Shown here piece after piece: positions 4,001 through 21,993 of a stretch of 22,190 nucleotides of DNA. Location of the stretch: the NCBI GenBank assembly GCA_020049595.1, contig JAIFKL010000306.1, forward strand, positions 1 to 22,190, given 5' to 3'. The position numbers and the translations under genes were made by a program. The notes beneath the pieces are model-generated. The model was not told the origin of the DNA. It worked only from the letters and a program-made list of their open reading frames with translations, and did no database searches. The stretch comes from Desulfobacteraceae bacterium. GTDB taxonomy: Bacteria > Desulfobacterota > Desulfobacteria > Desulfobacterales > JAIFKL01. Position 1 is the stretch's first letter; the number at the start of each line of letters is the position of its first letter.

Positions 4001-5181
4001 ACGGCATAGATAAAATGCTTCAAAAAGGGCTGGACAGTCCTTTGTCTTTGTGGCATAATAATCTCGGTGGAAAAATCCGTACAGTTGTGAGTGTTCCGAA
4101 CACTGCAAATGTCTCGTCGTTCCTGCCATGGCTTGATATTAAGGGCGGGGCTGACGCCGATGCGGAAGCAGAATCAGTTCCGGGCAAAAGCATCAGCGCA
4201 AAAGCCCGGATCAATGTCTCAGATGCAGATTTTCGGGCGGGAAATGCCTTCACGATGAAGGGTCTGAACGCCGATGTTCGTATCGGGAAGCACTACAAGA
4301 TACTGAAAGAGCAAAATCCGAATGCTGAACAGAAAGCCGGCCCCGAAAAAAAAGTCCGTCCTTTGTCTGCGGAGGTGATGGAGACAAATCCGCAGAAGCC
4401 TTTTACTTCCGGCGTCGGTGCGGTTCAAAGCTTCTTGAACAAAATGCAGAAACAAGTCAATGTGAGTCATACCTTTTCCTTTGCATCTGCCCGCATCGGC
4501 GCAAAACCGCCGCAATTTGAAATCGGTCAGACGGTCACAGACCTTGATCTGAGCCGAGAACTGCCCGGTCTGGATCATTTTCGTATTGACTTGCTGGGGG
4601 GAAGTGTAGTAGGTTCTGTTCTGACATCGGAAAAAAGCGGCGCAGGCTCGGAACCGCTTTATTTCGTGAAACTCCGGCTAAGTTTTTCAGGTCTGGATAT
4701 GGAAAAAATATTTCCCGATATGACTTACAAAGCCGGAGATGCGGAAGTGAGCGGGCAGTTGTCGCTTTCCTTTCCGCTGAGGACTGAACTCAAACCCTTG
4801 CTTCAGGAAACACAGCTTGATATTCAGTTTACGCATATCGGTCATCGGGCTGTTGAACGGATGCTTTATGCGCTCGACCCTTATGAAAGCAATGAGGCAA
4901 TTGTCTCCCAACGCGAACTTTTTCGTAAAGGAATCCCCCGCCGGATTGCTATCGCAGTGAAAGACGGGAATCTTTCACTGAGCGGCGAAATTGAAGCAAA
5001 AGGCATTTTGCTGGAAATCCCGCGTCTGGAAAGGCTCAACATTGCCAATATCTCAGGCATTGACAAACTCGGAGAATATCTCATTCACCTGAAAGCGATT
5101 GCTGAGATATTGAAAATCACCTCTGCAAATGTGTTGAAAATCAAAGAAAACGGAACAATAACAATGGACAGAGATGGATAA
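1093..5181 (+). CDS. Large envelope protein, AsmA-family/TamB-like (N-terminal signal-anchor, AsmA-type N-domain, internal ~122-aa tandem repeats)
   Basis: 1362-aa uninterrupted ORF. The N-terminus has basic residues followed by the hydrophobic stretch FLLAAILILTAAVLLV (signal anchor). After the TM segment the sequence resembles AsmA N-domains (…TRISNAVKRLVKIENLKWQWSEGLLIQGFSIADDPNFS). The rest is long and beta-rich and rich in D/S/G/L. Start is uncertain: an AGGAGG at 1189-1194 is in frame but no start codon follows it at proper spacing; the ATG at 1093 is taken from the track. Confidence 0.5.
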   Translation: MCASVAKNTPKHRIILKYLSFQSFNSPFAKEGRRKFLLAAILILTAAVLLVPDIVSTKWFCGFLETRISNAVKRLVKIENLKWQWSEGLLIQGFSIADDPNFSHQPILSVVSAKLLINIEIFGNRRLCLNFICRGADIRLIRDRKGESNLEKLLSQIISAEDKQKEKSQPPFFLPLDVQSDIHLNDFSFLAEDRLREKQLALKNASLYLDMPSLYSEPITLTLSSDAELDGKKFPQIRLKAMSKNLFDAEGALNLNGGEIKAVLPGLQLDICGDLSAREIKSDISLDLEPLSDILKPFLPPPMSDNELSGKVKFIAETSGDPSQAFDFDMRLEGFDVNISGELLKGKHLGPLNFRIANKGDFDSGKEKLSVEAGEIHLDNSRLIWSGTASGILHGSPDSVDIKINPLEINLEEFLTSMRAVMPRLISGSEIKGNLKLRGETQGNFRKAFSFDANLEGDKVSISGNLLKGKHLGPLNFRISDKGDFDSDKGKLSVEAGEIRIGNSRFVYNGVLESLHDSPAINLNLSRLRFDLGELLNAASDFLPEKFPLSFNSGDKRQSPILEAQDAVFSGPLSAGPNPAEINDLSLNVPDFQFNSDKIKLSGSEIKLMIPHVKTTLRDFFPEDAYLTASLNLDSLSIMGEKEIAVRDLEIPNLSFKSEQIRKSETALFGIVSSFSLQESLAVAEFNMPSLFGVAGLRHSLTAECALSNTDAEVKLRELKISAPVLAIEKKKSSSLKTSLELDTRINSATLRRLSPLKLDISGARSRVIVGVPGESRKLVSLEIQADAKDTGKNLLNTKGNLSTSLDMLSKNFASLFISHLEKSDLKGDAEFGWNFSGRLPNDAEVKKLSTFSTTDVEQNLSFLEQLDIFTQMKAVEADVKLGKQKRVKIKSLSTSPMRYSFDRKTGNGKLSGEISAEGIEEIPSQKLEKPLSLYLSFSANHHYFQSVSISQSAEIKPSDIKANLDVSLYGIDKMLQKGLDSPLSLWHNNLGGKIRTVVSVPNTANVSSFLPWLDIKGGADADAEAESVPGKSISAKARINVSDADFRAGNAFTMKGLNADVRIGKHYKILKEQNPNAEQKAGPEKKVRPLSAEVMETNPQKPFTSGVGAVQSFLNKMQKQVNVSHTFSFASARIGAKPPQFEIGQTVTDLDLSRELPGLDHFRIDLLGGSVVGSVLTSEKSGAGSEPLYFVKLRLSFSGLDMEKIFPDMTYKAGDAEVSGQLSLSFPLRTELKPLLQETQLDIQFTHIGHRAVERMLYALDPYESNEAIVSQRELFRKGIPRRIAIAVKDGNLSLSGEIEAKGILLEIPRLERLNIANISGIDKLGEYLIHLKAIAEILKITSANVLKIKENGTITMDRDG

Positions 5182-8817: not shown

Positions 8818-9015
8818 TTATTCCTCAATTTCCTCAATTTCGGCTTTGACAGGCACTTTCTTGTCGGAGGCCAGCAATAAAAATAAACCGATGATGGGGC
8901 CCAGCAGCAGCGAGCCGAAAAAATAGCCCCAAAATCCCATTTTCCTGTTGATCCCCATGAGTCCGATAACCAGACTCGCCACTGCCCATGCTATCGTTAT
9001 GATTGTCGGTGACAT
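8818..9015 (-). CDS. Small two-TM membrane protein, possibly PLDc_N-type (cardiolipin-synthase N-terminal-like) domain
   Basis: 65 aa with two hydrophobic helices. GSLLLGPIIGLFLLLASDKK resembles the P-x-x-G-x-x-x-Y/F-L-L-F-G-R/K motif of PLDc_N small membrane proteins. Acidic C-tail EIEEIEE. Weak SD. Confidence 0.4.
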   Translation of the reverse strand: MSPTIITIAWAVASLVIGLMGINRKMGFWGYFFGSLLLGPIIGLFLLLASDKKVPVKAEIEEIEE

Positions 9016-9060: not shown

Positions 9061-9083
9061 CGCTTCGCTCAGAATGACAATCC
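9061..9083 (-). repeat. Inverted copy of flank motif (reverse complement GGATTGTCATTCTGAGCGAAGCG)
   Basis: See feature 692-714. Again adjacent to a palindromic array, but in the opposite orientation. Confidence 0.5.
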
Positions 9084-9113
9084 AGACCCTAAGGGTTTTA
9101 AAAACCCTTAGGG
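9079..9113. repeat. Perfect 35-bp palindrome CAGACCCTAAGGGTTTT-A-AAAACCCTTAGGGTCTG
   Basis: 17-bp arms, read directly. It lies downstream of the channel operon and upstream of the small membrane-protein gene. Confidence 0.85.
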
Positions 9114-9135
9114 TCTGATTTCAAACTACATAAAA

Positions 9136-9323
9136 GTAGAACGGGTTTCAAACCCGTTTTACTGAATGATATAAAAGCAGAACGGGTTTCAAAACCCGTT
9201 TTACTGAATGACATAAAAGTAGAACGGGTTTCAAACCCGTTTTACCGGGATAAAGTAAGCAGAACGGGTTTCAAAACCCGTTTTACTGAATGACAAAAAA
9301 GCAAAACGGGTTTCAAAATCACC
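9136..9323 (+). repeat. Tandem array (4.5 copies, period ~41 nt) of palindromic element G[TC]AGAACGGGTTTCAAA(A)CCCGTTTTAC with TGAATGACATAAAAG-type spacers
   Basis: Copies at 9136, 9177, 9219, 9259 and a half copy at 9301. Alternate copies have a one-A-longer loop (CAAAACCC). The spacers are near-identical to one another, so these are not CRISPR spacers. Confidence 0.9.
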
Positions 9324-9355: not shown

Positions 9356-11602
9356 TCAGATGCGCTGACTGATATGACAGATATATATCTGCAAGGTGCT
9401 GACGCTTAAAATAATTGCAAAATTAATAAATTGTCCTGCACAGATCATCACCTTTTCAATTTTGTCTTTCTCTTTTTTTCTGTGCGAAGCATAACTCAGC
9501 AAAATGATAAAAACAGAAATTCCCGCCAATATAAAGACTGCCAGATGAGCATATTCAAGGGCTGACATATATGCTATCGGCAGGTCTGCAAAAAGCTTGA
9601 GATGAAAAACCGTATTTGCCGTCAATACGGCTGCCATCACAGACAGCGAAATGCCGAGCCGGTCTGCCGGCATAAGATACAGGATGCCGAAAATAATCAT
9701 CACCATGACGATGACCGGAAGAAAAGTTTTGAAGACAAACACAACGCCTTTCCTCTCAATCGGAATTGCCGCAGTAAAGCGGGAATAGCTGATGAGATGA
9801 TGCTTGTCAAAAAACTGGGGATTGCCGAGGGTGGAAACCTTTTCCACCGTATCCTGATAGAAATCCAGTTCGCCGAGCTGCCAGTCATCCGCATCTTTGA
9901 GCTTTGTTTTCTCAAGCATATTCTTTGCCTGCGGAAGCCCGAGCGTATCGGCAACATAAATCAACTGCTCTTTTTTCATTTCAATGTGCCGGAATCTTAT
10001 CTTCAACGTATGGCGGTCAAAAGGATAGGCGTGAAAATCAAAATCATTTTTGAAATCCGCTTTGATACGGTAAGCCCGAAACACAATACCCTTTTCGTCT
10101 GTTCCTTTGATAAAAGGCTGGCCCAGTTCAACCGGACTTACGGCGTTGAGAAATTCGATCTGAGTTTCATCAAAATCGCCTTTATAGCGGAACCAGAGAT
10201 AAAAATCTGCCGTATAACTTGAATGTATAGTATTCAGCTTGCTTATTTCATTCATATAGATTCCGGCATACACCACACGGGTCTGAGTCATCAGTTTTCC
10301 GTCGCTCAGTATGATGTCGCCTTCCAATGCCTTTCTGAACACATCCTCAACCTGCTCCCCTTCGGGAACAGGCTGATACTGAACAAAGTCGGGAAAGAGT
10401 GTCTGTTTTTCATAGAATCCGATGAAGGGCGGCCGGGAGACATTGCCTTTTGCATTAAAATAAATACGCCCGCTGACGCCTCTGATCGCATTTTCATAGT
10501 TGTAAAAACTTTTCAACGCCTCCCTGATTTTCCTCCGGTCGCTGCGTATATGCCCTTTTCCCTGTATGTCAGCTTTCTTGACAGCTTCCACCGCGACGTG
10601 CATCGCATCATAATAGCAGCCGGCTATCCATGAGGGTTCTTCTCTGTATTTTTTGATGAAAGACTGTCTGAAAAAATAGGCTTCTTTATCGGCAACATCT
10701 GTCAGAAGCGGTGATATCGCGAGAATGCCGTCGGAATAATATCCGGGATTCGACTGTTCTTTCGGATATTTTTTCAATGCCTCAATAAAAAAGCCTGTTG
10801 AAAGCGAATCCGGACCGATAGCAGGGTATTTTTTTCCCATGTCTCTTAAAAGCCGAATGGTTTCTGCCGCTTCAGGAAAGTGCATTGCCAGAAAAAGTAT
10901 TCCCGGATCGCCGGCGCTGTCTATTGACTCGGCAATCTTTTTTAAAACCGTATCAGGCTTTTGAGCGGAAGAATCGAATCCCCATTTTCCTTTAATATCA
11001 ATCCCCAGCTTTTTTGCCATTATTTCAAAATATTCGGCAAGAGAAGAGCCGTAACTGTCTTTATCAGATATGATCGTGGCAGATGTTGACTTCAAGGCTT
11101 TGCGAATATAATTTGCGATAAAATTGACTTGCGAAATATTGCCGGGAATAATTCTGAAATACCATTCATTATCAGAAGTAATCGCTTCCGCGCTGGCAGA
11201 CGCGGTCATCGCGCATATTTCATTCTGCTTATATATCTCTCCGGCAGCAATACAGGCACTGCTGTAATCATGTCCGAGTACCAGCAGCGCTTTTTTTGGG
11301 GAAGCAATTTCCGTAGCAACCTTCTTCGCAGTATGTTCATTGCTTTTATCATCAAAAACAAGCAGTTCTATCTTTTTCCCTGCCGGTTCGCCGCCCCTTT
11401 CGCGGAGGTGTTCCAGATACAGTTCCGCCCCTTTTAGCATTGCTTTTCCTCCTGCTTCTTCCGCACCGCTCATGGGACCCGCAAGGGCAATATAGATGAC
11501 TTCTTTTTTTAGCGGCGATAAAGGATGAAAGCGCAGGAAAGCGCCTGCTGCCCCCCCGATCATCAGCAGCAGAAAGATGATAACAATCAGTATTTTTTTC
11601 AT
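9356..11602 (-). CDS. Periplasmic-binding-protein (LivK-like PBP1) domain fused to prokaryotic pentameric ligand-gated ion channel (Pro-loop receptor), paralog A
   Basis: Signal peptide MKKILIVIIFLLLMIGGAAGA. The N-terminal ~400 aa are LivK/ANF-receptor-type PBP1 (IYIALAGPMSGAEEAGG…LLVLGHDYSSAC…). The C-terminal extracellular domain carries the Cys-less Cys-loop signature AYPFDRHTLKI (compare GLIC RYPFDSQTLHI). M1 has the conserved Pro (FKTFLPVIVMV). M2 ends in the LP-x-x-x-Y motif (FADLPIAYMSALEY, compare GLIC TNLPKTPYMTY). M3 and M4 follow a short intracellular loop. The track start at 11608 is TTG; the ATG at 11602 gives a clean signal peptide. Confidence 0.8.
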   Translation of the reverse strand: MKKILIVIIFLLLMIGGAAGAFLRFHPLSPLKKEVIYIALAGPMSGAEEAGGKAMLKGAELYLEHLRERGGEPAGKKIELLVFDDKSNEHTAKKVATEIASPKKALLVLGHDYSSACIAAGEIYKQNEICAMTASASAEAITSDNEWYFRIIPGNISQVNFIANYIRKALKSTSATIISDKDSYGSSLAEYFEIMAKKLGIDIKGKWGFDSSAQKPDTVLKKIAESIDSAGDPGILFLAMHFPEAAETIRLLRDMGKKYPAIGPDSLSTGFFIEALKKYPKEQSNPGYYSDGILAISPLLTDVADKEAYFFRQSFIKKYREEPSWIAGCYYDAMHVAVEAVKKADIQGKGHIRSDRRKIREALKSFYNYENAIRGVSGRIYFNAKGNVSRPPFIGFYEKQTLFPDFVQYQPVPEGEQVEDVFRKALEGDIILSDGKLMTQTRVVYAGIYMNEISKLNTIHSSYTADFYLWFRYKGDFDETQIEFLNAVSPVELGQPFIKGTDEKGIVFRAYRIKADFKNDFDFHAYPFDRHTLKIRFRHIEMKKEQLIYVADTLGLPQAKNMLEKTKLKDADDWQLGELDFYQDTVEKVSTLGNPQFFDKHHLISYSRFTAAIPIERKGVVFVFKTFLPVIVMVMIIFGILYLMPADRLGISLSVMAAVLTANTVFHLKLFADLPIAYMSALEYAHLAVFILAGISVFIILLSYASHRKKEKDKIEKVMICAGQFINFAIILSVSTLQIYICHISQRI

Positions 11603-11617
11603 AAACAAATGCCAGCC

Positions 11618-13855
11618 CTACTTCAGATAACAGGTATAGGCAATTAAAACAGCAATAACTGAAACCGCCGGAGGATAAAGAATCTTTGCCGCACGGCTGA
11701 GATATTTTATCTTGTTCCGAGCGTCTTTTTTCAGCAAATGTCTGACGCAGAGGAAAAAGAACAAAGACATTGCCGCCAATGCGTAAAATGAGAAAAAGGC
11801 ATATTCAATAAATAAAAAATACCCTGCCGAAGAAAAATAGTGATAAATCCTGAGATGATACAGTCCGCATGTCAGCGCCGCCGCTCCCAGCATCATCAGA
11901 CGGATGCCGAAGCGATCATGCGGCAGAAAATAGGTGAAATACAGTATCATAACCGCAATGAAAATCGGGAGAAAATTTTTGAGAATAAAGGCAAAACCGG
12001 TTCTTTCTCCCTGAAAGACCGCATTAAACTGTGAGTAATCAATATCTGTCTCATGGTAATTATCCGGAAATTTTCCGACAACAGTATTTTTCGTCACCGC
12101 GTCCTGATAAAAAAGAATACCGGTGATATTCCAGCTTTCAAGCATTCTTTTGGTCTGGTTTTCGATCTCATTTTTTATGGTTTCAAGCTGAGGCATGCCC
12201 AGTCTGTCAGGAACGAAGACCAGCCTGTTTCTCGGAATCTCTGTATTGCGGAGGCTGATTCTGATGGTCTGCTGTCCGAAGGGATATTTGTGAAAATCAA
12301 AAGCGACTTTGAAAGTCCCCTTTACCCGATAGGCTCTGACAGCGCTGCTGTCTGTTTTTGTTTCCATGATGGGACGGCTCAGGGCAACAGGCTTTACCGC
12401 GTTTGTAAACTCAATCAGACTTTCATCAAACTCTCCTTCAAACCGGAACCAGATATAAAAATCTATGGCGCAGGTTGAATTTTTTATATCGGAATTGCTG
12501 ATTTCATTAATATCAATGCCGGTATAAACAATCCTGAACTTCTCCATTTCTTTTTCATCAACCGTAATAAGGTCCTCTGCATGAGACGATGAAAGCGCGT
12601 GCTGCTCTGCTTCTGTTTCAGATACGAACTGATACTGGTAAAATGCCGGAAGGAACAGGCGTTTTTTATAGACGCCCATGGCCGGCGCCACGCTGACATC
12701 GCCGTGCGTGTCGAAGTACATGTTGCCGCATATCCCCGTGATTCCGGTTTCCGGGGAGTTCATTCTCGCCAATGCTTCTCTGAGCAGTTTCCGGCTTTCC
12801 CGTATGCTTATGACACCCTGAATTTCAGCCCTTTCAACCGCCTCGGCAGCAACCTGCATCGCGTCATAGTATGCGGCAGATACCCATGACGGTTCCTCTT
12901 TATACCTGTCGGCGAATTTTTTTCTGAATAAGTAAGCTTTTTCATTTGAAATATCGAGAATAAAGGGGGACACGGCATAAATATCGTCCGAATGGTATCC
13001 GGGAATGATCTGTTCTCCGGGATATCTTTTAAGATTCTCAAGAAATGTTTCCGCGGCAAGCGCATCCGAACCGACAATCGTATAACTTGTTCCGGGATAT
13101 TTCAATGACGCGACTATTTTTGCCGCTTCGGCACCGTGCATTGCCAGAAAAATCACCCCCGTGTCGTCTGTAGCTCTTAATTCGTCGGCAATCCGCTTTA
13201 CTTCAATGTCCGAATTTTTTTCATCCGTGTCAATTCCCCATTTTCCCTTAACCGTGATGCCCAATATCCCGGCAGATTTTTCAAATGCTTTGACAAGCGA
13301 TAACCCGTAAGAATCTTCGTCAAAAACAATGCTGACTTTATCTTTGTTCAGACTGCGGAAAATATAATTTGCGATAAAGCCGCCTTCAAAACGGTTCGCG
13401 GGGATGGTTCTGAAATACCAGTCATTGCCTGCAGTAATAAGGTCTGCTGTTGCAGAAGCGGTGATAACGGGCATACCTGTTTTTTTATAAACGTCTCCTG
13501 CCACAACAGAGGTTTCACTGGAATAATGACCCAGTACCAGCAGGACATTTTCATTTGCGACAATCTCAGACGCGGCTTTCATTGCCATGCGTTTATCGTC
13601 TCTGTCATCAAAGACAAGCAGTTCTATATTTCTGTCTTTGTGCTGTTTATTCCAGTCATCAGCGCAGAGACGGATCCCCTGAAGCATCCGCTGTCCCTGT
13701 AATTTCGCTTCTCCGCTGACAGGCAGCGCCACAGCAATCATAATCTTTTCTTTTTTGACAAAAGGAGAAAGCTGTGAATACTGGAGAATAAGCAGCACAG
13801 CCAGGGCGATCAGCGCCGATGCCGTTGCAGATATGAGCAGCCGTTTTCTTTTCAT
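11618..13855 (-). CDS. LivK-like PBP1 domain fused to pentameric ligand-gated ion channel, divergent paralog B
   Basis: Signal peptide MKRKRLLISATASALIALAVLLILQ from the ATG at 13855. The same PBP1-plus-channel architecture as A, with KYPFGQQTIRISL Pro-loop motif and M1 Pro (FLPIFIAVMILYF). M2 aligns to A but ends HLRIYHYF in place of HLKLFADLP, so the conserved LP is lost. The 9-nt gap to the downstream gene implies co-transcription. Confidence 0.75.
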   Translation of the reverse strand: MKRKRLLISATASALIALAVLLILQYSQLSPFVKKEKIMIAVALPVSGEAKLQGQRMLQGIRLCADDWNKQHKDRNIELLVFDDRDDKRMAMKAASEIVANENVLLVLGHYSSETSVVAGDVYKKTGMPVITASATADLITAGNDWYFRTIPANRFEGGFIANYIFRSLNKDKVSIVFDEDSYGLSLVKAFEKSAGILGITVKGKWGIDTDEKNSDIEVKRIADELRATDDTGVIFLAMHGAEAAKIVASLKYPGTSYTIVGSDALAAETFLENLKRYPGEQIIPGYHSDDIYAVSPFILDISNEKAYLFRKKFADRYKEEPSWVSAAYYDAMQVAAEAVERAEIQGVISIRESRKLLREALARMNSPETGITGICGNMYFDTHGDVSVAPAMGVYKKRLFLPAFYQYQFVSETEAEQHALSSSHAEDLITVDEKEMEKFRIVYTGIDINEISNSDIKNSTCAIDFYIWFRFEGEFDESLIEFTNAVKPVALSRPIMETKTDSSAVRAYRVKGTFKVAFDFHKYPFGQQTIRISLRNTEIPRNRLVFVPDRLGMPQLETIKNEIENQTKRMLESWNITGILFYQDAVTKNTVVGKFPDNYHETDIDYSQFNAVFQGERTGFAFILKNFLPIFIAVMILYFTYFLPHDRFGIRLMMLGAAALTCGLYHLRIYHYFSSAGYFLFIEYAFFSFYALAAMSLFFFLCVRHLLKKDARNKIKYLSRAAKILYPPAVSVIAVLIAYTCYLK

Positions 13856-13870
13856 TATGATACGCAAAGA

Positions 13871-13934
13871 AATTGAGAATTGAGAATTATTTCTCAATTC
13901 TCAATTCTCAATTTCTAATTACTAATTACTAATC
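13871..13934. repeat. Heptamer-repeat palindrome (AATTGAG x2 / CTCAATT x3) followed by TAATTAC x2, filling the intergenic gap between the lipoprotein and channel B genes
   Basis: AATTGAGAATTGAGAATT at 13871-13888 pairs with AATTCTCAATTCTCAATT. The TAATTAC repeats overlap the stop of the upstream gene (13929-13931). On the minus-strand mRNA the hairpin is followed by UUUCUUUG and then the ATG at 13855. Confidence 0.8.
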
Positions 13935-16661
13935 TTTAAGATACCAGTTTCGGATATGCTGACCCCCGATTGCCATCTGATACCAGCCTTTGACTCTCGG
14001 TTTTACCAGACAGTGCGCCGCCTCAAAATAAAGCGGAAAAATCACCGCCTGCTCTTCGCACAGAATCTGTTCCGCACGTTTGTAAATCTTTTTTCTCTCT
14101 TCGGGATTCGTGGTTTCCAATGCTTTTGTCATCAGATCGGCAAACTCCGCATTATCCCAGCCCGTAAAATTGTCCGGGTTGCGGGGGTTGAACAGTTCAT
14201 TGAGAATATTGTTCGCATCCGGATAATCCACAGACCAGCCGAACCTGCATATATGGTGCGAAGACGTATCCGGCTGATACAGATATTTCACATAATTATC
14301 CCATGTTTCTTCCCTGAGAATGAGATGAATGCTGAGATAATACTCCAACGATGCCTGAACCGCACGGGCAATCTCCGAATGGGTTTTGGAGGCATTGTAA
14401 AGGAGTTCTATCTCGGGAAAACCTTTGCCGTCCGGATAACCGGCTTCTGCCAGCCATTTTTTCGCCTGCAAAGGATCAAAACTGATGCCCACCCCGTTTT
14501 TCGGATCAACGGAACCCAGAATCGGCGGTGGCGTATAAGTCGTTGCCGGTGACTCGCCGCTTTTGGTGACCAGATCAATTAAAAACTGACGGTCAACCGC
14601 GGCGCAGATCGCCTTCCGAACCAGCGGATTGTCCATCGGCGGACGTTTGGTATTAAAGCCGTAGGAATATGTCGCAAACATCGGCGCTCTTGAATATTCT
14701 TTGCCGAGCTGGGGATTTGATTTAATATCATTCAGTTGTGCAAAAGGCAGCCGCAGATAGTTTCCGCCGGTTATGTCTAATTCGCTGTTTTCATACATGA
14801 CCAGACCCACCGCGCTTTCAGGTATGATGTAAAACCGGACTTCAGGGATGGAAACTTTTGACGCTTCGTAGTAATCCGGATTCTTCCTCAATATCATCAG
14901 CATCCCTTTGTCCCAGTACGTGAGTTTGTAAGAACCGTTTGTCTGAATGTTTTCAGGTTCTGTCCAGCGGTCCCCGTATTCTTCAACAGTCTCACGGGGC
15001 AGGGGTCTGTAAATCGCAAGCCCTGCCATTCCCGGAAAATACGCGGCAGGGTGTTCAAGCTCAAATTCCACGGTAAAATCATCGGGCGCATGTACGCCTA
15101 TCTGCGAGACATCCTTAATATTTCCGGCATTGATCTCTTTGGCGTTTTTCAGAATATAGAGCATGGAAACAGAGGGGCATTTGGTTTCCGGTCTGATATT
15201 CCGCTGAACTGCCCAGACAATATCACTCGCCGTAACCGGCTTGCCGCTTGTCCATTTGGCATCCTCGCGCAGTTTGAAGCGGTAGGTCTTTCCGTCATCG
15301 CTGACGGTCCAGCTCTGAGCCAGTTCGGGAACCGCTTCATAAGTTTTCGGATCAAAATCGGTCAGTCCCAGAAATATCTGCTCAACCGCTTCAACAGAGG
15401 AAATGTCCTGTGAAAGTCCCGGATCAACGGTCGTGATAAGCCCTTCCACGGGAAGCCGCAATGTGATTTCTTCCACCACATACAAAGGGCTGATTTCCTC
15501 TTTTGATTCATAATCCAACAGCTCGAATTTCCCGTTGCGAAGCTCTTTGAAAAAAATTTCTTTTCCGGCAATATCGCCGTTCAGCTTGAAAGAATAGGAG
15601 CCGGTAGCCCCTTTCCAGTTTTCTAAGAACCTCAGCGCGGATCCCATGGCAACGGGAACCGCGGAACCGCTCTTTTCAATGCTGTATGCCAGCAGTTGAA
15701 CCGCATCATATCCCTGAGCCGCCCATGTATCCGGCACCACGCCGAATTTTTTCCGAAACTTTTTGACAAAATCCCGTGTGCTTTTTGAAGGCATATCAGG
15801 ATTGAAAACCGAAGGAACGATCACATGCTCCGCGCTTTTCCCCGCCACCGTAAAAAGTTCCGGCGAGTCAAGGCTGTGTCCGCCGATAAAGGGAACGCTG
15901 ATGCCCATGCCTCGCGCCTGCTTGATCAGTTCTCCGGCAAAGGGAAGCAGTCCGCCGATAAAAACCGCATCAAATTTGTAATTTTTGGCAAGTTCCGATG
16001 TGATGCTCCTGAAATCTTTCTGCCATTTGAAATAAGAACGGACAGCGACAATCGTAATTCCCAGCTTGTCGGCTTCTTCGCTGAAAATATCGGCAAGGCG
16101 CTGGCCCGCGGTCTCTCTTTCATAAAAGACCGCCATTTTTCTGAATCCTTTCTGATAAGCCAGCGTTGCCGCCTTTTTTCCGGTTTCATCATCGGAGAGC
16201 ATATTTCTGAATGTATAGGTGCCGCCGTATTGTGTAAAGTTCGGGTCTGTCGCGCCCGTGGAAATAAAAAGAATACCCGTGTTTTCATAGATGATGGACA
16301 CCGGCACCGCAACGCCTGAGTAGCGATGCCCCACTACCGCAACCACATCGGGATGCGCTGCTAATTTCCTTGCAACAACCTGGGCAATATTGAGATATCT
16401 TTTGTCGTCGTAAAACAGGGGATGGATTTTTCTTCCCAGAGGTCCCCCCTGTTCGTTGATTTCCGACACTGCCAGATTGACGCCTTCCGTAAACAGGCTG
16501 GGATCAAAAGAAGAATCCACCACGCCGATACAAATATCCGCTTTTGACTCCCCGGCCCGTTTGGCTCTTTCTTCAGGCGATAGGGTGTCATTGCCGCAGG
16601 AAAAAACAGACAGCAGCGCTATGAGCAGAATAATGTGTTTACCTGTTTGCATCCGGCGCAT
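13929..16661 (-). CDS. Dual substrate-binding lipoprotein: N-terminal LivK-like PBP1 domain fused to C-terminal SBP family 5 (OppA/DppA/NikA-like) domain
   Basis: AGGAAA sits 6 nt upstream of the ATG. Lipobox LLSVFSCGND. Residues ~40-380 are PBP1 (ICIGVVDSS…VAVVGHRYSGVAVPVS…). Residues ~395-910 are SBP_bac_5 (VEQIFLGLTDFDPKTYEAVPELAQSWTVSDDGKTYRFKLREDAKWTSGKPVTASDIVWA…). The start overlaps the upstream SPFH gene's stop by 23 nt. Confidence 0.75.
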   Translation of the reverse strand: MRRMQTGKHIILLIALLSVFSCGNDTLSPEERAKRAGESKADICIGVVDSSFDPSLFTEGVNLAVSEINEQGGPLGRKIHPLFYDDKRYLNIAQVVARKLAAHPDVVAVVGHRYSGVAVPVSIIYENTGILFISTGATDPNFTQYGGTYTFRNMLSDDETGKKAATLAYQKGFRKMAVFYERETAGQRLADIFSEEADKLGITIVAVRSYFKWQKDFRSITSELAKNYKFDAVFIGGLLPFAGELIKQARGMGISVPFIGGHSLDSPELFTVAGKSAEHVIVPSVFNPDMPSKSTRDFVKKFRKKFGVVPDTWAAQGYDAVQLLAYSIEKSGSAVPVAMGSALRFLENWKGATGSYSFKLNGDIAGKEIFFKELRNGKFELLDYESKEEISPLYVVEEITLRLPVEGLITTVDPGLSQDISSVEAVEQIFLGLTDFDPKTYEAVPELAQSWTVSDDGKTYRFKLREDAKWTSGKPVTASDIVWAVQRNIRPETKCPSVSMLYILKNAKEINAGNIKDVSQIGVHAPDDFTVEFELEHPAAYFPGMAGLAIYRPLPRETVEEYGDRWTEPENIQTNGSYKLTYWDKGMLMILRKNPDYYEASKVSIPEVRFYIIPESAVGLVMYENSELDITGGNYLRLPFAQLNDIKSNPQLGKEYSRAPMFATYSYGFNTKRPPMDNPLVRKAICAAVDRQFLIDLVTKSGESPATTYTPPPILGSVDPKNGVGISFDPLQAKKWLAEAGYPDGKGFPEIELLYNASKTHSEIARAVQASLEYYLSIHLILREETWDNYVKYLYQPDTSSHHICRFGWSVDYPDANNILNELFNPRNPDNFTGWDNAEFADLMTKALETTNPEERKKIYKRAEQILCEEQAVIFPLYFEAAHCLVKPRVKGWYQMAIGGQHIRNWYLKD

Positions 16662-17934
16662 TCGTATTTCCTGTCAGTTCGGAGCGGTCTTTTTCAGTGA
16701 CCCTTCCGGTTCTGTCTTTTTCGGTTACCATTCCGGATTTATTTTTGATTTCAGATCGCTCGTCTTTTTGAGCCTGTTCTGTTTCACGGGGAACCGCTTC
16801 CCCGGCGTCACGTATAAATTCATATTTACGAGTTGTTCCGGTTTCACCGCCTGTTTTGCCGGTTTCCGCTGCTCCGCCCGTTTCTGTTTTTTCGGACGCC
16901 TCTGTTTTTCCGGCAGGCTCGGTTGTAATGCCTGTTTCTGTCTTTTCAGATGCTTCTGTTTTTCCGGCAGGCTCGGTTTTTCCGCCTGTTTCCGTGCCGG
17001 GGGCGGCTTTCTCGGATGATTCAGATTTTTCAAGGGCTTGGGTTTTTATCATCGGCTCTTCATTCAGTAAGATACTCCCTATGATCGGCAAGCCTCTTTT
17101 ACCCGCGCCGACAACCACAACTTTTGAATTGTCCGAATTGGCAAGCTGCAATGTTGCCTGAATGCCCATCCACTGCAATATATTTTCCGTAAGCGAGGCG
17201 TTTACAATATTGTTATAATCTTTTAATCCCCCGGCTTCGATACGCTTTCTTTCCGCCTCTCTTTTTTCCTTCTCTATCTTAAACAGATGCGCTTCCGCCA
17301 TGTGTTTCTGTTCGACTTTATAGCGTATGGAATCTGCAACGCTGTCAGGCAGTTCGACTTCTTTGATAATCACATCGTCAACTTTGATAAATCTTCGGGA
17401 AATCTGCTCAATCGCCTCGTTGATTGCCTGGTCTATCAGCCCTGTTTTTGTGGTGTAAATCTCCTCGGCATCCAACTGTCCCACAATCAGACGCAATACA
17501 GATTCGATTTCCGGGATCACAATTTCATTCACATAATCGGGACCCACTTTCTGGTGAAGCACGCCGAGCAGGTTATATTCGGGGTAATAACGGACAGATA
17601 TGGATAACTGAACCTTCAATCCGTTTTTCGTCAGCACATGAAACTTGTGTCCTGCCTGCTGTACCCTCATATTATAAACATAAAGTCTGTCCCAGGGATA
17701 AAGCAGATAAAGCCCCTCGGCAAAGACCTTATCCGTGATTGTTCCGCCGCCGAAGCGCTTGTATAAAACGCCCGCTTCCCCTGACTCAACCGTATAGACA
17801 ATATTGTTAAACAGATAGGCAATAAAGAGCAGTTGAATCAGAATAAGCACTATCAGCACGGAGACATTGCCCTGAAATTTTTCTAAAATGCCGTTATATA
17901 TATCTTTAATTTTATTAAATATTCTTTTAAACAT
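16639..17934 (-). CDS. SPFH/band-7 (stomatin/prohibitin/HflK-C family) membrane protein with coiled-coil and low-complexity repeat tail
   Basis: N-terminal TM (VSVLIVLILIQLLFIAYLF), then an SPFH domain (VESGEAGVLYKRFGGGTITDKVFAEGLYLLYPWDRLYVYNMRVQQAGHKFHVLTKNGLKVQLSISVRYYP…), a coiled-coil (KIEKEKREAERKRIEAGG) and a 17-aa tandem repeat tail (PAGKTEASEKTETG…). The track start is TTG at 17964; the ATG at 17934 is the likely start. Confidence 0.75.
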   Translation of the reverse strand: MFKRIFNKIKDIYNGILEKFQGNVSVLIVLILIQLLFIAYLFNNIVYTVESGEAGVLYKRFGGGTITDKVFAEGLYLLYPWDRLYVYNMRVQQAGHKFHVLTKNGLKVQLSISVRYYPEYNLLGVLHQKVGPDYVNEIVIPEIESVLRLIVGQLDAEEIYTTKTGLIDQAINEAIEQISRRFIKVDDVIIKEVELPDSVADSIRYKVEQKHMAEAHLFKIEKEKREAERKRIEAGGLKDYNNIVNASLTENILQWMGIQATLQLANSDNSKVVVVGAGKRGLPIIGSILLNEEPMIKTQALEKSESSEKAAPGTETGGKTEPAGKTEASEKTETGITTEPAGKTEASEKTETGGAAETGKTGGETGTTRKYEFIRDAGEAVPRETEQAQKDERSEIKNKSGMVTEKDRTGRVTEKDRSELTGNTNAPDANR

Positions 17935-17968
17935 TTCTTCTGATTTCCGGTTTAGCCCACCCAATAGC

Positions 17969-18068: not shown

Positions 18069-19703
18069 TTAAACCTGACTGCTGTACTCGACAAATTTGC
18101 CGTATTCCATCTTCAATACCCTGTCTGCAAAATCAAAATATCGGTCGTCATGGCTGACCGCGATAATTGTTTTTCCCTGCGCTCTCAGATCGTTTAATAA
18201 AACTTCATAAAAATATTTTCTGAAAATCGGATCCTGATCCGCGGCCCATTCGTCAAACACGCAAATCGGGCGTTCCTCAAGCAAAGCGGCAATCATTGCA
18301 AGTCGTTTCCGCTGTCCTGTGGAAAGCTTGATATTGGTAAATTCGCCGTCAATGACCTCTGTTTTCTTTTCCAATTCCATCAATTTGATAAGACTTCGGA
18401 TTCTATCGGCATCTGTTTCTCTCAAGCCGTAGAGCCTGTCAAACACATGAAAATCGCTGAAGATAATAGAAAACATCTCCCGATATGACTGATAAGATGT
18501 CTTGTCAATCGTCAAATCATCCACTCGGAGGGTGCCGGCATCGGGATAATACAGTCCGGTTAAAAGCTTGAGCAAAGTTGATTTTCCGCTGCCGTTGCCG
18601 CCGACGATAAAGATGATTTCTCCCTGCCGGGCCCTCATATTGACAGGCCCCACCGTAAATAAAGGCGTTCCGTAAGAATCGGTATAGGAAAAAGAAAGGT
18701 TCTCAAGACGGATTTCGTTAAAGGTTTCTATCTTTCTGACATGAGGCTTTCCCCCGACTTTAAACGGCGCTGCGGCTTTGTCCAATCTTGCTTCCAGTTC
18801 ATAGAGCGTTTCCACTGCCATATTTGCTCTGGAAAAAAGCGGTATCGCACCCACCATCAGATTCACCGGACCGATGATAAACAGAATGGCGGCAGTCAGC
18901 CGGATGACCAATGAAGGATTTGCCGGGTCCAATCTGGGCAGAACAAAAACAATAACAGCGAGTAATGTGTAAAAAAACACTTGGGAGAACATCAGTTCCG
19001 TGACAAATCTGAATCCGGTTTTGACCTTCAATTCCTCGGTTTCATCTGCTATTTTTGTCAGAAATCCGAAAAGATCATCGCTTTTTTTTCTGTTCATTTT
19101 GAGTTCTTTGAAGCCGTCAAGGGTCTGATTCAGCATATCAAAGAAATCGCTTTCTTTTCTTGCGGTCTCACGGATTTCTATGTCAATTTTATCCTGCTGC
19201 AACATATAATTGACGGTCGCCGCGCCGATGGCAATAACGGTGATGAAAAAAGCCAATTTCGATAAGACAGCAATATAGAACATGCAGAAAAACAGTACAA
19301 TGCCGGACTGGGCCGCGTTGATAATCAGCACGGCGGATTCGGAAATAAGATTGGTGTTATAAGTGATCCGAGTATAAATTTCCGCTTTTCCGGTGTTTTC
19401 CAGAAAAATAAGTTCCGAACTTCTGATTTTATCGGCAATCCTTACCCGTATGCGTTTGATGATGGCCTCGGCAAGAGCGGTTGCTCTTTTCAAAGCAAAT
19501 CGTTTTCCGATAATCACAATGGCGAAAGTAATCACAAACAGAAGAAAGAATCTGAAATTCAGGCTGTCGTAAGAAGCAGTGGCAGCCGCAGTGGTGATAA
19601 TGCCCAGCAGAAGTCCCTGCGCGATGCCCGAGACAATTGCCATAAACATCACCGATGTGCCGGAAACGGTTGATTCGTTTTTATATAGTTTCAGCAGATT
19701 CAT
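18069..19703 (-). CDS. ABC transporter, fused permease/ATPase, cyclic-peptide exporter family (SyrD/YojI-like)
   Basis: Six N-terminal TM helices, then an NBD with Walker A GGNGSGKST, ABC signature LSTGQRKRL, Walker B ICVFDEW and H-loop AVSHD. Size and arrangement (TMD-NBD, 544 aa) fit the cyclic-peptide transporter subfamily. Confidence 0.7.
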   Translation of the reverse strand: MNLLKLYKNESTVSGTSVMFMAIVSGIAQGLLLGIITTAAATASYDSLNFRFFLLFVITFAIVIIGKRFALKRATALAEAIIKRIRVRIADKIRSSELIFLENTGKAEIYTRITYNTNLISESAVLIINAAQSGIVLFFCMFYIAVLSKLAFFITVIAIGAATVNYMLQQDKIDIEIRETARKESDFFDMLNQTLDGFKELKMNRKKSDDLFGFLTKIADETEELKVKTGFRFVTELMFSQVFFYTLLAVIVFVLPRLDPANPSLVIRLTAAILFIIGPVNLMVGAIPLFSRANMAVETLYELEARLDKAAAPFKVGGKPHVRKIETFNEIRLENLSFSYTDSYGTPLFTVGPVNMRARQGEIIFIVGGNGSGKSTLLKLLTGLYYPDAGTLRVDDLTIDKTSYQSYREMFSIIFSDFHVFDRLYGLRETDADRIRSLIKLMELEKKTEVIDGEFTNIKLSTGQRKRLAMIAALLEERPICVFDEWAADQDPIFRKYFYEVLLNDLRAQGKTIIAVSHDDRYFDFADRVLKMEYGKFVEYSSQV

Positions 19704-19840: not shown

Positions 19841-21703
19841 TTACGATACGCGTATCCGAAATCGCTCATCCCAGATATAGGTGATGAATCCCTGACCCGG
19901 ATTGTCAGAAATCTCTTCCGGCTCTGCCGTTCTTTTTTCTCCCGAAGAAAGACCGCCGCCCAGAATCGTGATCGCATCAAAGATCACAATGTCTTTTATC
20001 TGTCCGTCCTCAGACCTTAATGTCCTGTTGGTGCAGGCTGCGATGGGGATACGGGTATTCGGGTCATAAACGATGCCGACGTCATAGCCCAGAAAGTTAC
20101 CGGATGCAATCAGCATGTTGTTCGAGAGATTTTTGTAGAGATTGGGACCGCACTGAGTTGCAGGATTCATCGGGAAATAAAGTTCCGGGTCAACCGTTGT
20201 GTCATTTACAAAATCATAGCCTTTGCCGAAGAGCTTGCCTTCGCCGATGAGTTTGATCCATTTGCACAGATTTTCAGGCGAGGAAATCATACACGCCGAT
20301 GAACTGGCAGCAGAGGGTTCACGAGTCGAAGCATCTTCCAAGCCCTTGTCTTTACTTCCGTACATCGCGCCGGTCACATCATACAGGTCAATGTAGCCGT
20401 GAGCATAATTTCCCTCTGTCGGATTCTGAGTATATGGACCTTCAAGGTTTGATTCTCCTGTTTCAGTAACAATGGTGTCGCTGAGTCCGTATTTCTTGAT
20501 AAAACGGTTCCGTATCTCATCTTCCCATTTATTGCCGGTCACTTCCTTTATGAGCATTCCCAGCAGAACATAATTCGTATTCGAGTAATGCCAGCCCGCT
20601 CCGGGAGGAAAGGTCGGACCTTCTTCAACAGCAAGTTCAATGAGTTCGAGCGGTTCCCATTTGTCCTGACGGAGAAAGAGAAAATCAAAAAACCAGTCAG
20701 AAGGCACTTCATAAAAATTGTACAGCCCGCTGGAATGATTCACCACCTGACGGATATTGATGTTTTCCCCGTTGGGAATCAGTCCGGGGAACCACTGTTC
20801 AACAGAATCGTCCAGCGTGATTTTTCCCTCTTCGACAAGCTGCATGACGGCCATTGCCACAAATGTTTTGGTCAGACTGGCGACCCGGAACCGGGTATTT
20901 GTGGTCATCTGTGTTTTTGTTTCCAAGTTGGAATAACCGCTGGTCAGTTTCCATGTGAAAGCACCGTCCGAATAGGTCACACCGTCCATTACGCCGTTTA
21001 AGCAGTCGTCTCCCTCACAGGGAACTTCAGCAACCAGGGCCACGCCGGGGACCTCGTTTTCGGAAACAGCTTTATCCAAAATGTCCTGCAATTTTGTCCG
21101 AATAAAGTGATTCTGCGCCCTGACTGCTGAAACCATATCCCGCTCTTTGCCCAGCAAATCAGCGATGACAGGCTCTGTTTTCGTCTCAAATTCGCTCGAA
21201 CTTAATGAAAAGTCAACTTCTGTACTGTATTTCTTTGATTTTTCTCTCACGGATTCTGACAGAAGAATGCCGTTATCCGGATTCGCGTCGTCATCCAATG
21301 TCTGCAAAAAGCGCAGAATATTTGTCACCTGCGGGTCTCTGTCGCTTTCCGCTGCGGAAACCAAATCTCTGGGCGTCAGCGTCAGAACAGCCGGAGCAAG
21401 TTCCGCTTTGTTTACATCCAGTGTCAGCACGGTTGTCGCAGACCCGAGTACAATGTTTCCAAGCTTGAAGGTAACATTTTTGCCTTTTTCATAGAAGAAA
21501 GTGCCGTCCGCGTCGGTTACGCCGGTAAGCCCCCCGGAAATATAGCTCAGACCCTGAACCGCACTGTCTATAAAACGTCCTTCTCTTTCGGACACATAGT
21601 CCTCATGTTCGCCGCTGCACCCGAAAGCAGACATCATCACTACCAGCATCGCTGCAAAAAGATAAGGTGTTTTATCAAACACGATATTTCGTTTTTTCCT
21701 CAT
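19841..21703 (-). CDS. Beta-lactamase-fold serine hydrolase (PBP/esterase family) lipoprotein with ~210-aa N-terminal extension of unknown function
   Basis: AAGGAG sits 7 nt upstream of the ATG. Lipobox MSAFGCSG. The S-x-x-K active-site motif FRVASLTKTF and the YSN-type motif HYSNTNY are both present. The C-terminal part is Gly/Asn-rich. Confidence 0.7.
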   Translation of the reverse strand: MRKKRNIVFDKTPYLFAAMLVVMMSAFGCSGEHEDYVSEREGRFIDSAVQGLSYISGGLTGVTDADGTFFYEKGKNVTFKLGNIVLGSATTVLTLDVNKAELAPAVLTLTPRDLVSAAESDRDPQVTNILRFLQTLDDDANPDNGILLSESVREKSKKYSTEVDFSLSSSEFETKTEPVIADLLGKERDMVSAVRAQNHFIRTKLQDILDKAVSENEVPGVALVAEVPCEGDDCLNGVMDGVTYSDGAFTWKLTSGYSNLETKTQMTTNTRFRVASLTKTFVAMAVMQLVEEGKITLDDSVEQWFPGLIPNGENINIRQVVNHSSGLYNFYEVPSDWFFDFLFLRQDKWEPLELIELAVEEGPTFPPGAGWHYSNTNYVLLGMLIKEVTGNKWEDEIRNRFIKKYGLSDTIVTETGESNLEGPYTQNPTEGNYAHGYIDLYDVTGAMYGSKDKGLEDASTREPSAASSSACMISSPENLCKWIKLIGEGKLFGKGYDFVNDTTVDPELYFPMNPATQCGPNLYKNLSNNMLIASGNFLGYDVGIVYDPNTRIPIAACTNRTLRSEDGQIKDIVIFDAITILGGGLSSGEKRTAEPEEISDNPGQGFITYIWDERFRIRVS

Positions 21704-21886: not shown

Positions 21887-21993
21887 ACAGAACGGGTTTC
21901 AAACCCGTTTTACTGTTCATTGCTGTAGAACGGGTTTCAAAACCCGTTTTACTGTCCGGTTTGCTGTAGAACGGGTTTCAAACCCGTTTTACT
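21887..21993 (+). repeat. Tandem array (3 copies, period ~40 nt) of the palindromic element
   Basis: Copies at 21887, 21926 and 21967, with TGTTCATTGCT and TGTCCGGTTTGCT spacers. Same plus orientation as all other arrays, although both flanking genes are on the minus strand. Confidence 0.9.

Follow-up and report, generated by a model that had tools for sequence, protein, structure and literature searches.

Do four closely packed genes of a Desulfobacteraceae bacterium encode a single receptor-channel complex, or do they belong to independent systems that lie side by side? The question was raised by a DNA stretch of 22,190 nucleotides (assembly GCA_020049595.1, contig JAIFKL010000306.1, positions 1-22,190; referred to below as the window), in which a preliminary description had recognised a tight minus-strand operon at 9356-17934. 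It had assigned to this operon an SPFH/band-7 protein, a lipoprotein with two substrate-binding domains and two pentameric ion channels of the ligand-gated type (pLGICs), with a PBP1 binding domain at the N-terminus of each of the last three proteins. All four open reading frames (ORFs) were present:

16639-17934, minus strand: prohibitin-type SPFH protein, 431 aa from an ATG; an alternative TTG start lies at 17964, to which the longest ORF extends
13929-16661, minus strand: fusion lipoprotein PBP1-SBP5, 910 aa
11618-13855, minus strand: channel subunit U (PBP1-pLGIC), 745 aa from an ATG, or 759 aa from a TTG at 13897
9356-11608, minus strand: channel subunit D (PBP1-pLGIC), 750 aa

The spacing reported for these genes was also correct. 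The overlap of the SPFH gene with the lipoprotein gene is 23 nt long (16639-16661), a gap of 73 nt precedes channel U, and 9 nt separate the two channel genes; the 73-nt value is counted from the ATG at 13855 and depends on this start, which is the JGI gene call. On balance, we lean towards the view that the cluster encodes a receptor-channel complex which is gated by periplasmic amino-acid-like or peptide ligands and has a tethered partner and a prohibitin scaffold. We first describe what was established directly, namely domain identities and folds, hallmark residues, the conserved gene order and the assignment, by orthology, of the fused parts to two separate modules.

The channel subunits and their binding domains

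The C-terminal halves of both channel subunits are members of the pLGIC superfamily. This proposal of the preliminary description was borne out by profile and fold searches, although the Pfam Neur_chan models that had been suggested as a check gave no match at E <= 0.01; the Pfam models for the other domains (Band_7, Peripla_BP_6 and SBP_bac_5) did match. In subunit D, a helix at the N-terminus precedes the PBP1 domain (nt 10451-11497), and a pLGIC beta-sandwich with four transmembrane helices (nt 9356-10297) completes the protein. Subunit U starts with a signal or anchor sequence, which is followed by PBP1 (nt 12758-13744) and by the pLGIC extracellular domain with helices M1-M4 (nt 11618-12562). 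NCBIfam matches on the window channels were weak (LGIC_1, E = 8e-6; LIC, E = 1e-4), and a precomputed match to PF02932 existed for a few family members. Using phmmer, subunit D alone detected ELIC and GABA-A chains at E values of 3e-8 to 1e-5. Family profiles matched GLIC and ELIC with E values of 1e-17 to 2.5e-20, the alignments extending over both the extracellular domain and M1-M4; when GABA-A chimeras are included, the values were 1e-14 to 2.5e-20, and nearly whole chains were covered. Subunit U belongs to family profile A3, which matches GLIC and ELIC.

AF2 models of the channel showed about ten strands followed by four long helices. In the model of full-length subunit D (pLDDT 90.9, pTM 0.89) the beta-sandwich extended from residue 438 to 619 and the helices from 621 to 749. 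The top 50 Foldseek hits of this full-length model were binding proteins only. When the C-terminal half was modelled separately, the top 50 hits were all pLGICs, with a probability of 1.00. As the monomer model has its domains wrongly oriented to each other, the global TM-scores of this half did not exceed about 0.4.

Hallmark residues of the superfamily were compared among 99 family members. The loop-B Trp was present in all 99, the Arg/Lys preceding M1 in 98 and the Pro of the Pro-loop in 97, and the Asp/Glu of the [YF]P[FL][DE] motif was kept in 92. Within M2, 80 of the 99 had Arg/Lys at position 0' and 70 had Leu/Val/Ile at position 9'. These frequencies are similar to those published for the whole pLGIC superfamily. 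Subunit U itself has YPFG, Arg at 0' and Leu at 9'.

The two subunits are 40% identical over their full length. In a neighbour-joining tree (without bootstrap values) the U and D copies formed two clades across at least 10 loci, with loci L008, L009 and L015 as exceptions, and the order U then D was kept across cassettes. A best-hit test of this orthology was noisy (310 vs 170). U and D are best regarded as old paralogues and not as recent duplicates.

Pfam and fold comparison agreed on a PBP1 domain at the N-terminus of the lipoprotein and of both channels. Peripla_BP_6 was detected in the lipoprotein with an E value of 3.7e-42 and in the channel subunits with 4e-32 (U) and 6.1e-35 (D), and PF13458 scored 112-146 bits in the three proteins (cut-off 31.7). 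The PBP1 model of subunit D superposed on closed LivJ/LivK with target-normalised TM-scores of 0.88-0.91 (Foldseek), and the corresponding domains of metabotropic glutamate receptors (mGluR) and taste receptors were detectable as relatives at E = 5e-7. Pocket residues were mapped by sequence alignment to Ser79, Thr102, Tyr150 and Glu226 of LivJ, a numbering which we take to be correct. In LivJ-type proteins, these residues bind the alpha-amino and alpha-carboxylate groups of an amino acid. In the numbering of subunit D, the channel PBP1 domains kept Ser116 in 92 of the 99 members, Thr/Ser139 in 87, Tyr/Phe186 in all 99 and Asp267 in 82. For the lipoprotein PBP1, none of 14 orthologues has retained the equivalent of the Tyr, and 11 of them have lost the acidic residue. 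A pocket which by this mapping is kept in the channels and lost in the lipoprotein fits ligand sensing by the former and an adaptor function of the latter. The three domains are all PBP1 domains, as had been stated, but they are not equivalent, as that of the lipoprotein belongs to a separate subfamily which follows SPFH genes even in loci that have no channel.

The fusion lipoprotein, its partners and their conservation

The lipoprotein was confirmed as a double substrate-binding protein. It has a signal peptide with the lipobox Cys22, a PBP1 domain at aa 58-366 (nt 15564-16490) and an SBP5 domain at aa 443-828 (nt 14178-15335). SBP_bac_5 was detected with an E value of 7.4e-80 (PF00496, 269 bits; cut-off 32.4). 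Solved OppA structures were the best relatives of this domain (E = 4e-72 to 7e-68), ahead of MppA (E = 1.7e-55) and the pheromone receptor PrgZ (E = 8e-41). NCBIfam PRK09755 also matched the domain, and the NCBIfam OppA model scored 262 against an equivalog cut-off of 947. The OppA-type motif RxGWxxDYPDAN is present in the window protein; among 41 SBP5 partners examined it was located in 30, and the Asp motif was intact in 27 of these. The role given to GWxxDYPD in the SBP5 domain is our assumption. A lipobox is present in all partner proteins, and every orthologue of the window lipoprotein has a lipoprotein signal peptide. The window contained no genes of an OppBCDF-type ABC importer, as judged from the ORF list and Pfam, and neither an ABC permease nor an importer ATPase occurred among the 25 commonest Pfam families of the 137 ORFs flanking 36 SBP5-channel loci. 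As no permease was found in these flanks, the SBP5 partners are orphans without an importer nearby. A classical Opp importer was rejected for the same reason.

To which systems the two halves of the lipoprotein belong was apparent from their relatives. Metagenome contigs were scanned with an alignment of the cassette SPFH proteins, and the window domains were mapped on their ORFs. PBP1 proteins encoded 3' of an SPFH gene elsewhere, which were standalone or fused to thrombospondin-type repeats or an OmpA domain, scored 107-228 bits against the lipoprotein PBP1 and 30-70 bits against the channel PBP1. This three- to sixfold better score was obtained for every SPFH-following PBP1 of usable length in these loci. 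The SBP5 domain of the window and the standalone partner of Ca. Thiomargarita nelsonii were 52% identical over 509 residues, and the channels 38%; the higher similarity of SBP5 between Desulfobacterales and Thiomargarita suggests horizontal spread. As the PBP1 domain is orthologous to the partner of SPFH proteins and the SBP5 domain to the partner of channels, the lipoprotein fuses two otherwise separate modules. This bridging protein provides the strongest argument, beyond adjacency, that the four genes may act together.

Conservation of the gene order was determined from the channel side in 79 loci (one genome per species), using stop-to-stop ORFs, phmmer with the window proteins as queries and the window domains mapped on all ORFs; no curated gene calls were used, and taxon labels of metagenome-assembled genomes (MAGs) are given as deposited. 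The listing of hosts and loci covers the best 80 of 141 matches. Channel homologues form a large family, most of them annotated as 'ABC transporter substrate-binding protein'. The full order SPFH, PBP1-SBP5, PBP1-pLGIC, PBP1-pLGIC occurred in about 13 Desulfobacterales loci, one of them in the complete genome of Desulfonema magnum, at 7.92 Mb, and the channels of these loci were 38-47% identical to those of the window. A reduced pair of a standalone SBP5 lipoprotein followed by a PBP1-pLGIC was found in about 25 loci, mostly of Beggiatoaceae and other Thiotrichales, with two (L010 and L047) in deltaproteobacterial MAGs. Upstream DNA of 2 kb or more was available for 69 loci; in 36 of them an SBP5 gene lay directly upstream of the channel gene on the same strand, and in 12 of these 36 it was fused to PBP1. 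In L086 the parts of the cassette were present in a different order, and in L060 the order was SBP5, channel, SPFH, PBP1. The neighbourhood is therefore conserved in relatives, and many distant loci keep the order.

The profile of the channel half, run against 1.84 billion library representatives, matched at least 732 clusters (50% identity) at E <= 1e-30, and nearly all of the top 150 clusters had an N-terminal extension of 420-450 residues. The hosts among the loci listed (L003-L081) were mostly filamentous, multicellular or giant bacteria, namely Desulfonema, Beggiatoa and its relatives, Thiomargarita, Thioploca, Marithrix, Oscillatoriales, Anaerolineae/Caldilinea and Ca. Magnetomorum; this host pattern is uncorrected for phylogeny. 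Many of these genomes carried three to five or more copies.

Some family members were longer than the window channels. In forms of 1150-1220 aa (P0050, P0088, L012, L024, L027, L035, L036, L049 and others), about 400 residues after M4 were assigned by Pfam to an SBP_bac_1/8 class-II binding domain, which should be located in the periplasm and would thus equip the channel with a second binding protein by a different route. In other long members (P0019, P0047, P0058, P0116, L042 9840-13271 and L077 9917-12829) the channel-profile match ended before M4, and a cNMP-binding domain, an MscS beta-domain or both were present at the C-terminus. Such proteins would be pLGIC variants with three helices, whose regulatory or second-channel domains lie inside the cell. 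Small DUF697-like membrane proteins adjoined the cassettes in L007 (2964-3467), L031 (5796-6302), L039 (12149-12730) and L053 (12408-12944), and in L060 (1681-4701) a DUF697-like part was fused to the N-terminus of the channel; DUF697 was absent from the window.

The first gene of the four encodes a protein in which a transmembrane anchor at the N-terminus precedes the SPFH domain; a coiled coil and a tail of low complexity, rich in E, T, G and K, follow. Band_7 was detected with an E value of 2.8e-24 (Pfam; PF01145, 86.6 bits, cut-off 23.6), which confirmed the family. The comparison with stomatin did not stand: the best solved relatives were PHB2, the closest, and PHB1 (E = 1.9e-17 to 1e-12), while stomatin was found only at E = 4.5e-3. 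HflK and HflC models gave 19 bits against cut-offs of 134-159. The 13 SPFH orthologues of the cassettes had a mean identity of 47%, with a variable tail. By these scores the protein is classified as a prohibitin-type (SPFH4) member. From the positively charged N-terminus and the single transmembrane helix, the SPFH domain probably faces the periplasm, as in HflK/C and, on the side of the intermembrane space, in mitochondrial prohibitin. With a prohibitin-type, N-anchored and probably periplasm-facing protein the analogy to MEC-2 and stomatin is loose, and it was dropped, prohibitins being far better relatives.

Neighbouring genes and structured elements

The four genes are part of a head-to-tail series of six large minus-strand ORFs, which extends from 21703 to 9356. 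The two additional genes and the structured elements are as follows:

18069-19703, minus strand: fused permease/ATPase ABC exporter (TIGR01194), 104-134 nt upstream of the SPFH gene
19841-21703, minus strand: lipoprotein with a beta-lactamase/DD-peptidase fold, 620 aa, domain at aa 245-576
13868-13916, minus strand: A/U-rich hairpin with a perfect 22-bp stem, within the gap that separates the lipoprotein gene from that of channel U
9082-9118, minus strand: terminator-like hairpin with a 17-bp stem, 3' of the last channel gene (terminator scan and inverted repeat I3)

The exporter scored 343.7 bits with TIGR01194 (cyclic-peptide export; cut-off 286.2). Orthologues adjoined the cassette in L011, L017, L053 and L062, these four scoring 302-332 bits and thus above the cut-off, and in many of the metagenome loci an orthologue directly preceded the SPFH gene. 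The four genes are packed as first described, but the cluster probably reaches further upstream to this recurring cyclic-peptide-type exporter. A wider module without a channel, consisting of a TIGR01194-type exporter, a prohibitin-type SPFH protein and a PBP1 protein, was found in L087, L089, L093, L101, L103, L106, L112 and other loci. In some of them PBP1 was fused to thrombospondin-type-3 repeats and a peptidoglycan-binding OmpA domain. No description of this module was found in the literature. The beta-lactamase-fold lipoprotein, whose N-terminal 200 residues or so have no family match, heads the block only in the closest relatives (L001-L003). As its synteny is restricted to these, the gene was left outside the system. 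A scan for sigma-70 promoters gave no usable operon boundary in the window, and an Rfam search of the window gave no match.

The 73-nt gap is structured, as had been noted. Its hairpin has a folding energy of -30.6 kcal/mol (z = -7.8), and none of 200 shuffled sequences folded as well. The hairpin is located in a 46-nt insertion which is missing from the near-identical contig L001 (window 13856-13928 vs L001 7718-7760). Unrelated structured inserts occupied the same junction in L002 (7220-7705), L003, L005, L009 (7587-7760), L017 (7017-7165) and L042 (5573-6360); they consisted of large palindromes or of a GAAACGU tandem array, and other loci had no gap there. A conserved regulatory element in the strict sense was rejected, as the hairpin is absent from L001 and relatives do not share its sequence. 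Structured elements may insert preferentially at this junction, or selection may favour expression of the partner genes that is uncoupled from that of the channel genes.

A palindrome of about 20 nt, AACGGGTTT(T)GAAACCCGTT, was present 3' of the last channel gene in five copies about 41 nt apart (9135-9318), and one more copy was found at 21889-21911, upstream of the beta-lactamase-fold gene. With copies at both ends, the six-gene block is bracketed by a REP-like dispersed element. Beyond the terminator and the repeat array, a 65-aa ORF (8818-9015, minus strand) encodes a predicted small membrane protein; it was called as a gene at the same position in L001 and L002. On the plus strand, positions 30-641 encode a Cys/Asp-rich repeat protein with units such as DxDxDGxxxxxxDCNDxxxxxxPGAxExCGDxxDQxCxG, and a 1362-aa ORF with internal repeats (1093-5181) follows 3' of it.

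The proposed complex, its alternatives and known systems

In the receptor-channel complex that we favour, U and D would form pentameric channels, either one heteromer or two homomers. Each subunit would carry its Venus-flytrap PBP1 domain atop the canonical extracellular domain and sense an amino-acid-like ligand. The OppA-type domain of the tethered lipoprotein would take up a peptide-like ligand and act on the periplasmic domains of the channel, by analogy with the docking of DppA on the chemoreceptor Tap. The lipoprotein PBP1, with its pocket lost, would be the adaptor to a periplasm-facing ring of the prohibitin-type SPFH protein, and this ring would assemble or confine the complex in the inner membrane. 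Ligand binding would alter ion flux and hence the membrane potential, and the upstream exporter may supply the ligand. Every physical interaction in this scheme, as well as ligands, conduction, selectivity and physiological output, is what we infer for the complex.

Several points weigh against such a complex. Neur_chan_LBD and Neur_chan_memb did not match either window channel at E <= 0.01; as the profile and fold results were positive, this was read as a limit in the sensitivity of these models. Subunit D has the YPFD motif, but its residues at 0' and 9' are Ser and Thr, respectively. Conservation of M2 was weak among the 99 family members, and an acidic ring was absent from both -1' and -2'; neither conduction nor charge selectivity can therefore be deduced from the sequence. 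The five-fold symmetry of a channel is not obviously compatible with dimerising PBP1 domains. The literature searched contained no experimental study of any member of the PBP1-pLGIC family. The exporter adjoins the cassette in a minority of loci only, the channel-SBP5 pair is common without SPFH, and channel genes of Cyanobacteria and Chloroflexi have neither an SBP5 nor an SPFH partner. In the metagenome loci the closest SPFH homologues usually lie away from channels and are followed by a PBP1 protein. The SPFH-PBP1 and SBP5-channel modules are thus each common alone, and SPFH protein and channel need not touch.

The last of these points leads to the main alternative, that two independent systems are adjacent, an envelope module of exporter, prohibitin and PBP1 and a sensing module of SBP5 and pLGIC, which do not form a single complex; the SPFH ring would then serve the exporter or the quality control of membrane proteins, as do prohibitin and HflK/C with FtsH. 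Besides the many loci with one module alone, this alternative can draw on exporter-SPFH pairs which persist even without a PBP1 gene, and on the known role of prohibitins as scaffolds of membrane proteases. We nevertheless consider it unlikely, because in no fewer than 13 loci one polypeptide joins the SPFH-type PBP1 covalently to the channel-type SBP5, the lipoprotein gene overlaps that of the SPFH protein, and L086 and L060 keep SPFH with the channel despite different gene orders. The identity of the ligand allows another explanation, a sensor of cell-wall turnover, and not of peptides from outside or of a secreted signal, in which an OppA/MppA-like domain binds murein peptides and the channel adjusts ion balance or membrane potential. 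MppA, which binds murein peptides, is a close solved relative of SBP5, a lipoprotein with a beta-lactamase/DD-peptidase fold heads the cluster in the window and in close relatives, and some PBP1 partners of SPFH proteins have a peptidoglycan-binding OmpA domain. Since OppA proteins outscored MppA, the beta-lactamase-fold gene was confined to L001-L003 and murein-recycling genes were not enriched in the flanks, a sensor of this kind is improbable.

It is equally doubtful that the pLGIC-like halves do not conduct and form a pentameric platform which displays binding domains or signals to other partners by conformational change. The variable pore-lining positions of M2, the lack of conservation at charge-selectivity positions and the members which seem to have cytoplasmic cNMP-binding or MscS-type domains in place of M4 would agree with a platform. 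The strong conservation of the Pro-loop, the Arg preceding M1 and the loop-B Trp is hard to explain without gating, and most members keep a basic 0' and a hydrophobic 9' residue, as pLGICs generally do. Within the favoured complex, a further step is a long shot: a self-contained peptide circuit, in which the exporter releases a peptide and the OppA-like lipoprotein presents it to a heteropentamer inside the prohibitin ring, the resulting ion flux shifting the potential. If true, this circuit would be, in filamentous hosts, a transmitter-receptor system which coordinates cells along the filament. The lipoprotein PBP1 could in addition pair with the unpaired fifth PBP1 domain of the channel, and the five-fold symmetry would then be reconciled with the two-fold one.

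The basic kind of system, a pLGIC coupled to periplasmic binding proteins, is already known. PBP-I-pLGIC fusions and pLGIC operons with a stand-alone PBP-II were predicted computationally by Tasneem et al. in 2004 (PMC549065) from few genomes, e.g., Magnetospirillum and Bradyrhizobium; small-solute chemoreceptors were proposed and homopentamers expected. These predictions had not been tested experimentally at that time, and no later test was found in the literature searched. The systems of 2004 share with the present one a Cys-loop-type channel which is fused to a type-I binding domain and sometimes lies beside a separate binding-protein gene; they differ in that an SPFH partner, a PBP1-SBP5 fusion lipoprotein, paired paralogous subunits and an exporter are found here (PMC549065). 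No characterisation of the gene combination was found, in agreement with the preliminary description, but the novelty is less than it implied, as the fusions and the binding-protein operons had been predicted. What appears to be new is the cassette of four parts, with its bridging fusion protein and its old pair of subunits, together with the link to the exporter and the range of hosts.

Among pLGICs, DeCLIC is the only studied one with an extra N-terminal domain (PMC9897478, PMC12664993). It is also of the Desulfobacterota type, and its periplasmic N-terminal domain modulates gating (PMC9897478, PMC12664993). Unlike the Venus flytrap of the PBP1 family, this domain consists of two beta-rich calcium-binding lobes, and neither binding-protein nor SPFH partners have been described for DeCLIC. 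GLIC and ELIC resemble the present channel family in the alignment of the extracellular domain and M1-M4, in the fold and in the Pro-loop motif YPFD, but they have neither an N-terminal sensor domain nor dedicated partners, and the acidic -2' residue of GLIC is absent from the PBP1-pLGIC family. A survey of 2016 states that none of the prokaryotic pLGICs has a known physiological role.

The auxiliary proteins also have counterparts. Like prohibitin and HflK/C, which form rings around client membrane proteins in the periplasm or intermembrane space, the SPFH protein combines an anchor at the N-terminus with an SPFH domain and a coiled coil; the known clients of those rings are FtsH-type proteases, whereas the constant neighbour here is a PBP1 protein. 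Bacterial prohibitins were unstudied according to a survey of 2009, and no literature was found that links bacterial SPFH proteins with ligand-gated channels. In DppA-Tap and MBP-Tar, a ligand-loaded periplasmic binding protein acts on a chemoreceptor, and DppA belongs to the SBP5 family. Likewise, an SBP5-family binding protein would here act on a membrane receptor and not on a transporter. The output of a chemoreceptor is a kinase cascade and here it would be a channel; DppA and MBP also serve ABC importers, whereas the SBP5 lipoprotein has no permease nearby.

The cluster carries built-in clues to ligand and partners in its OppA-type lipoprotein, whose conservation between phyla exceeds that of the channel (52% vs 38%), its amino-acid-type pocket and its prohibitin-type scaffold. 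It thereby makes accessible to experiment the gating ligand of a bacterial Cys-loop-type channel, the coupling of a sensor domain to such a channel and the clients of bacterial prohibitins. As in ionotropic glutamate receptors (iGluRs) and class-C G protein-coupled receptors (GPCRs), a LivJ-type Venus flytrap is fused to a membrane signalling module. Unlike the tetrameric P-loop channels of the former and the 7-TM receptors of the latter, the module here is of the pentameric Cys-loop type, so that the resemblance is one of design and not of family membership. The cluster would represent a bacterial design of Venus flytrap, ligand-gated channel and auxiliary subunits, on a Cys-loop channel chassis.

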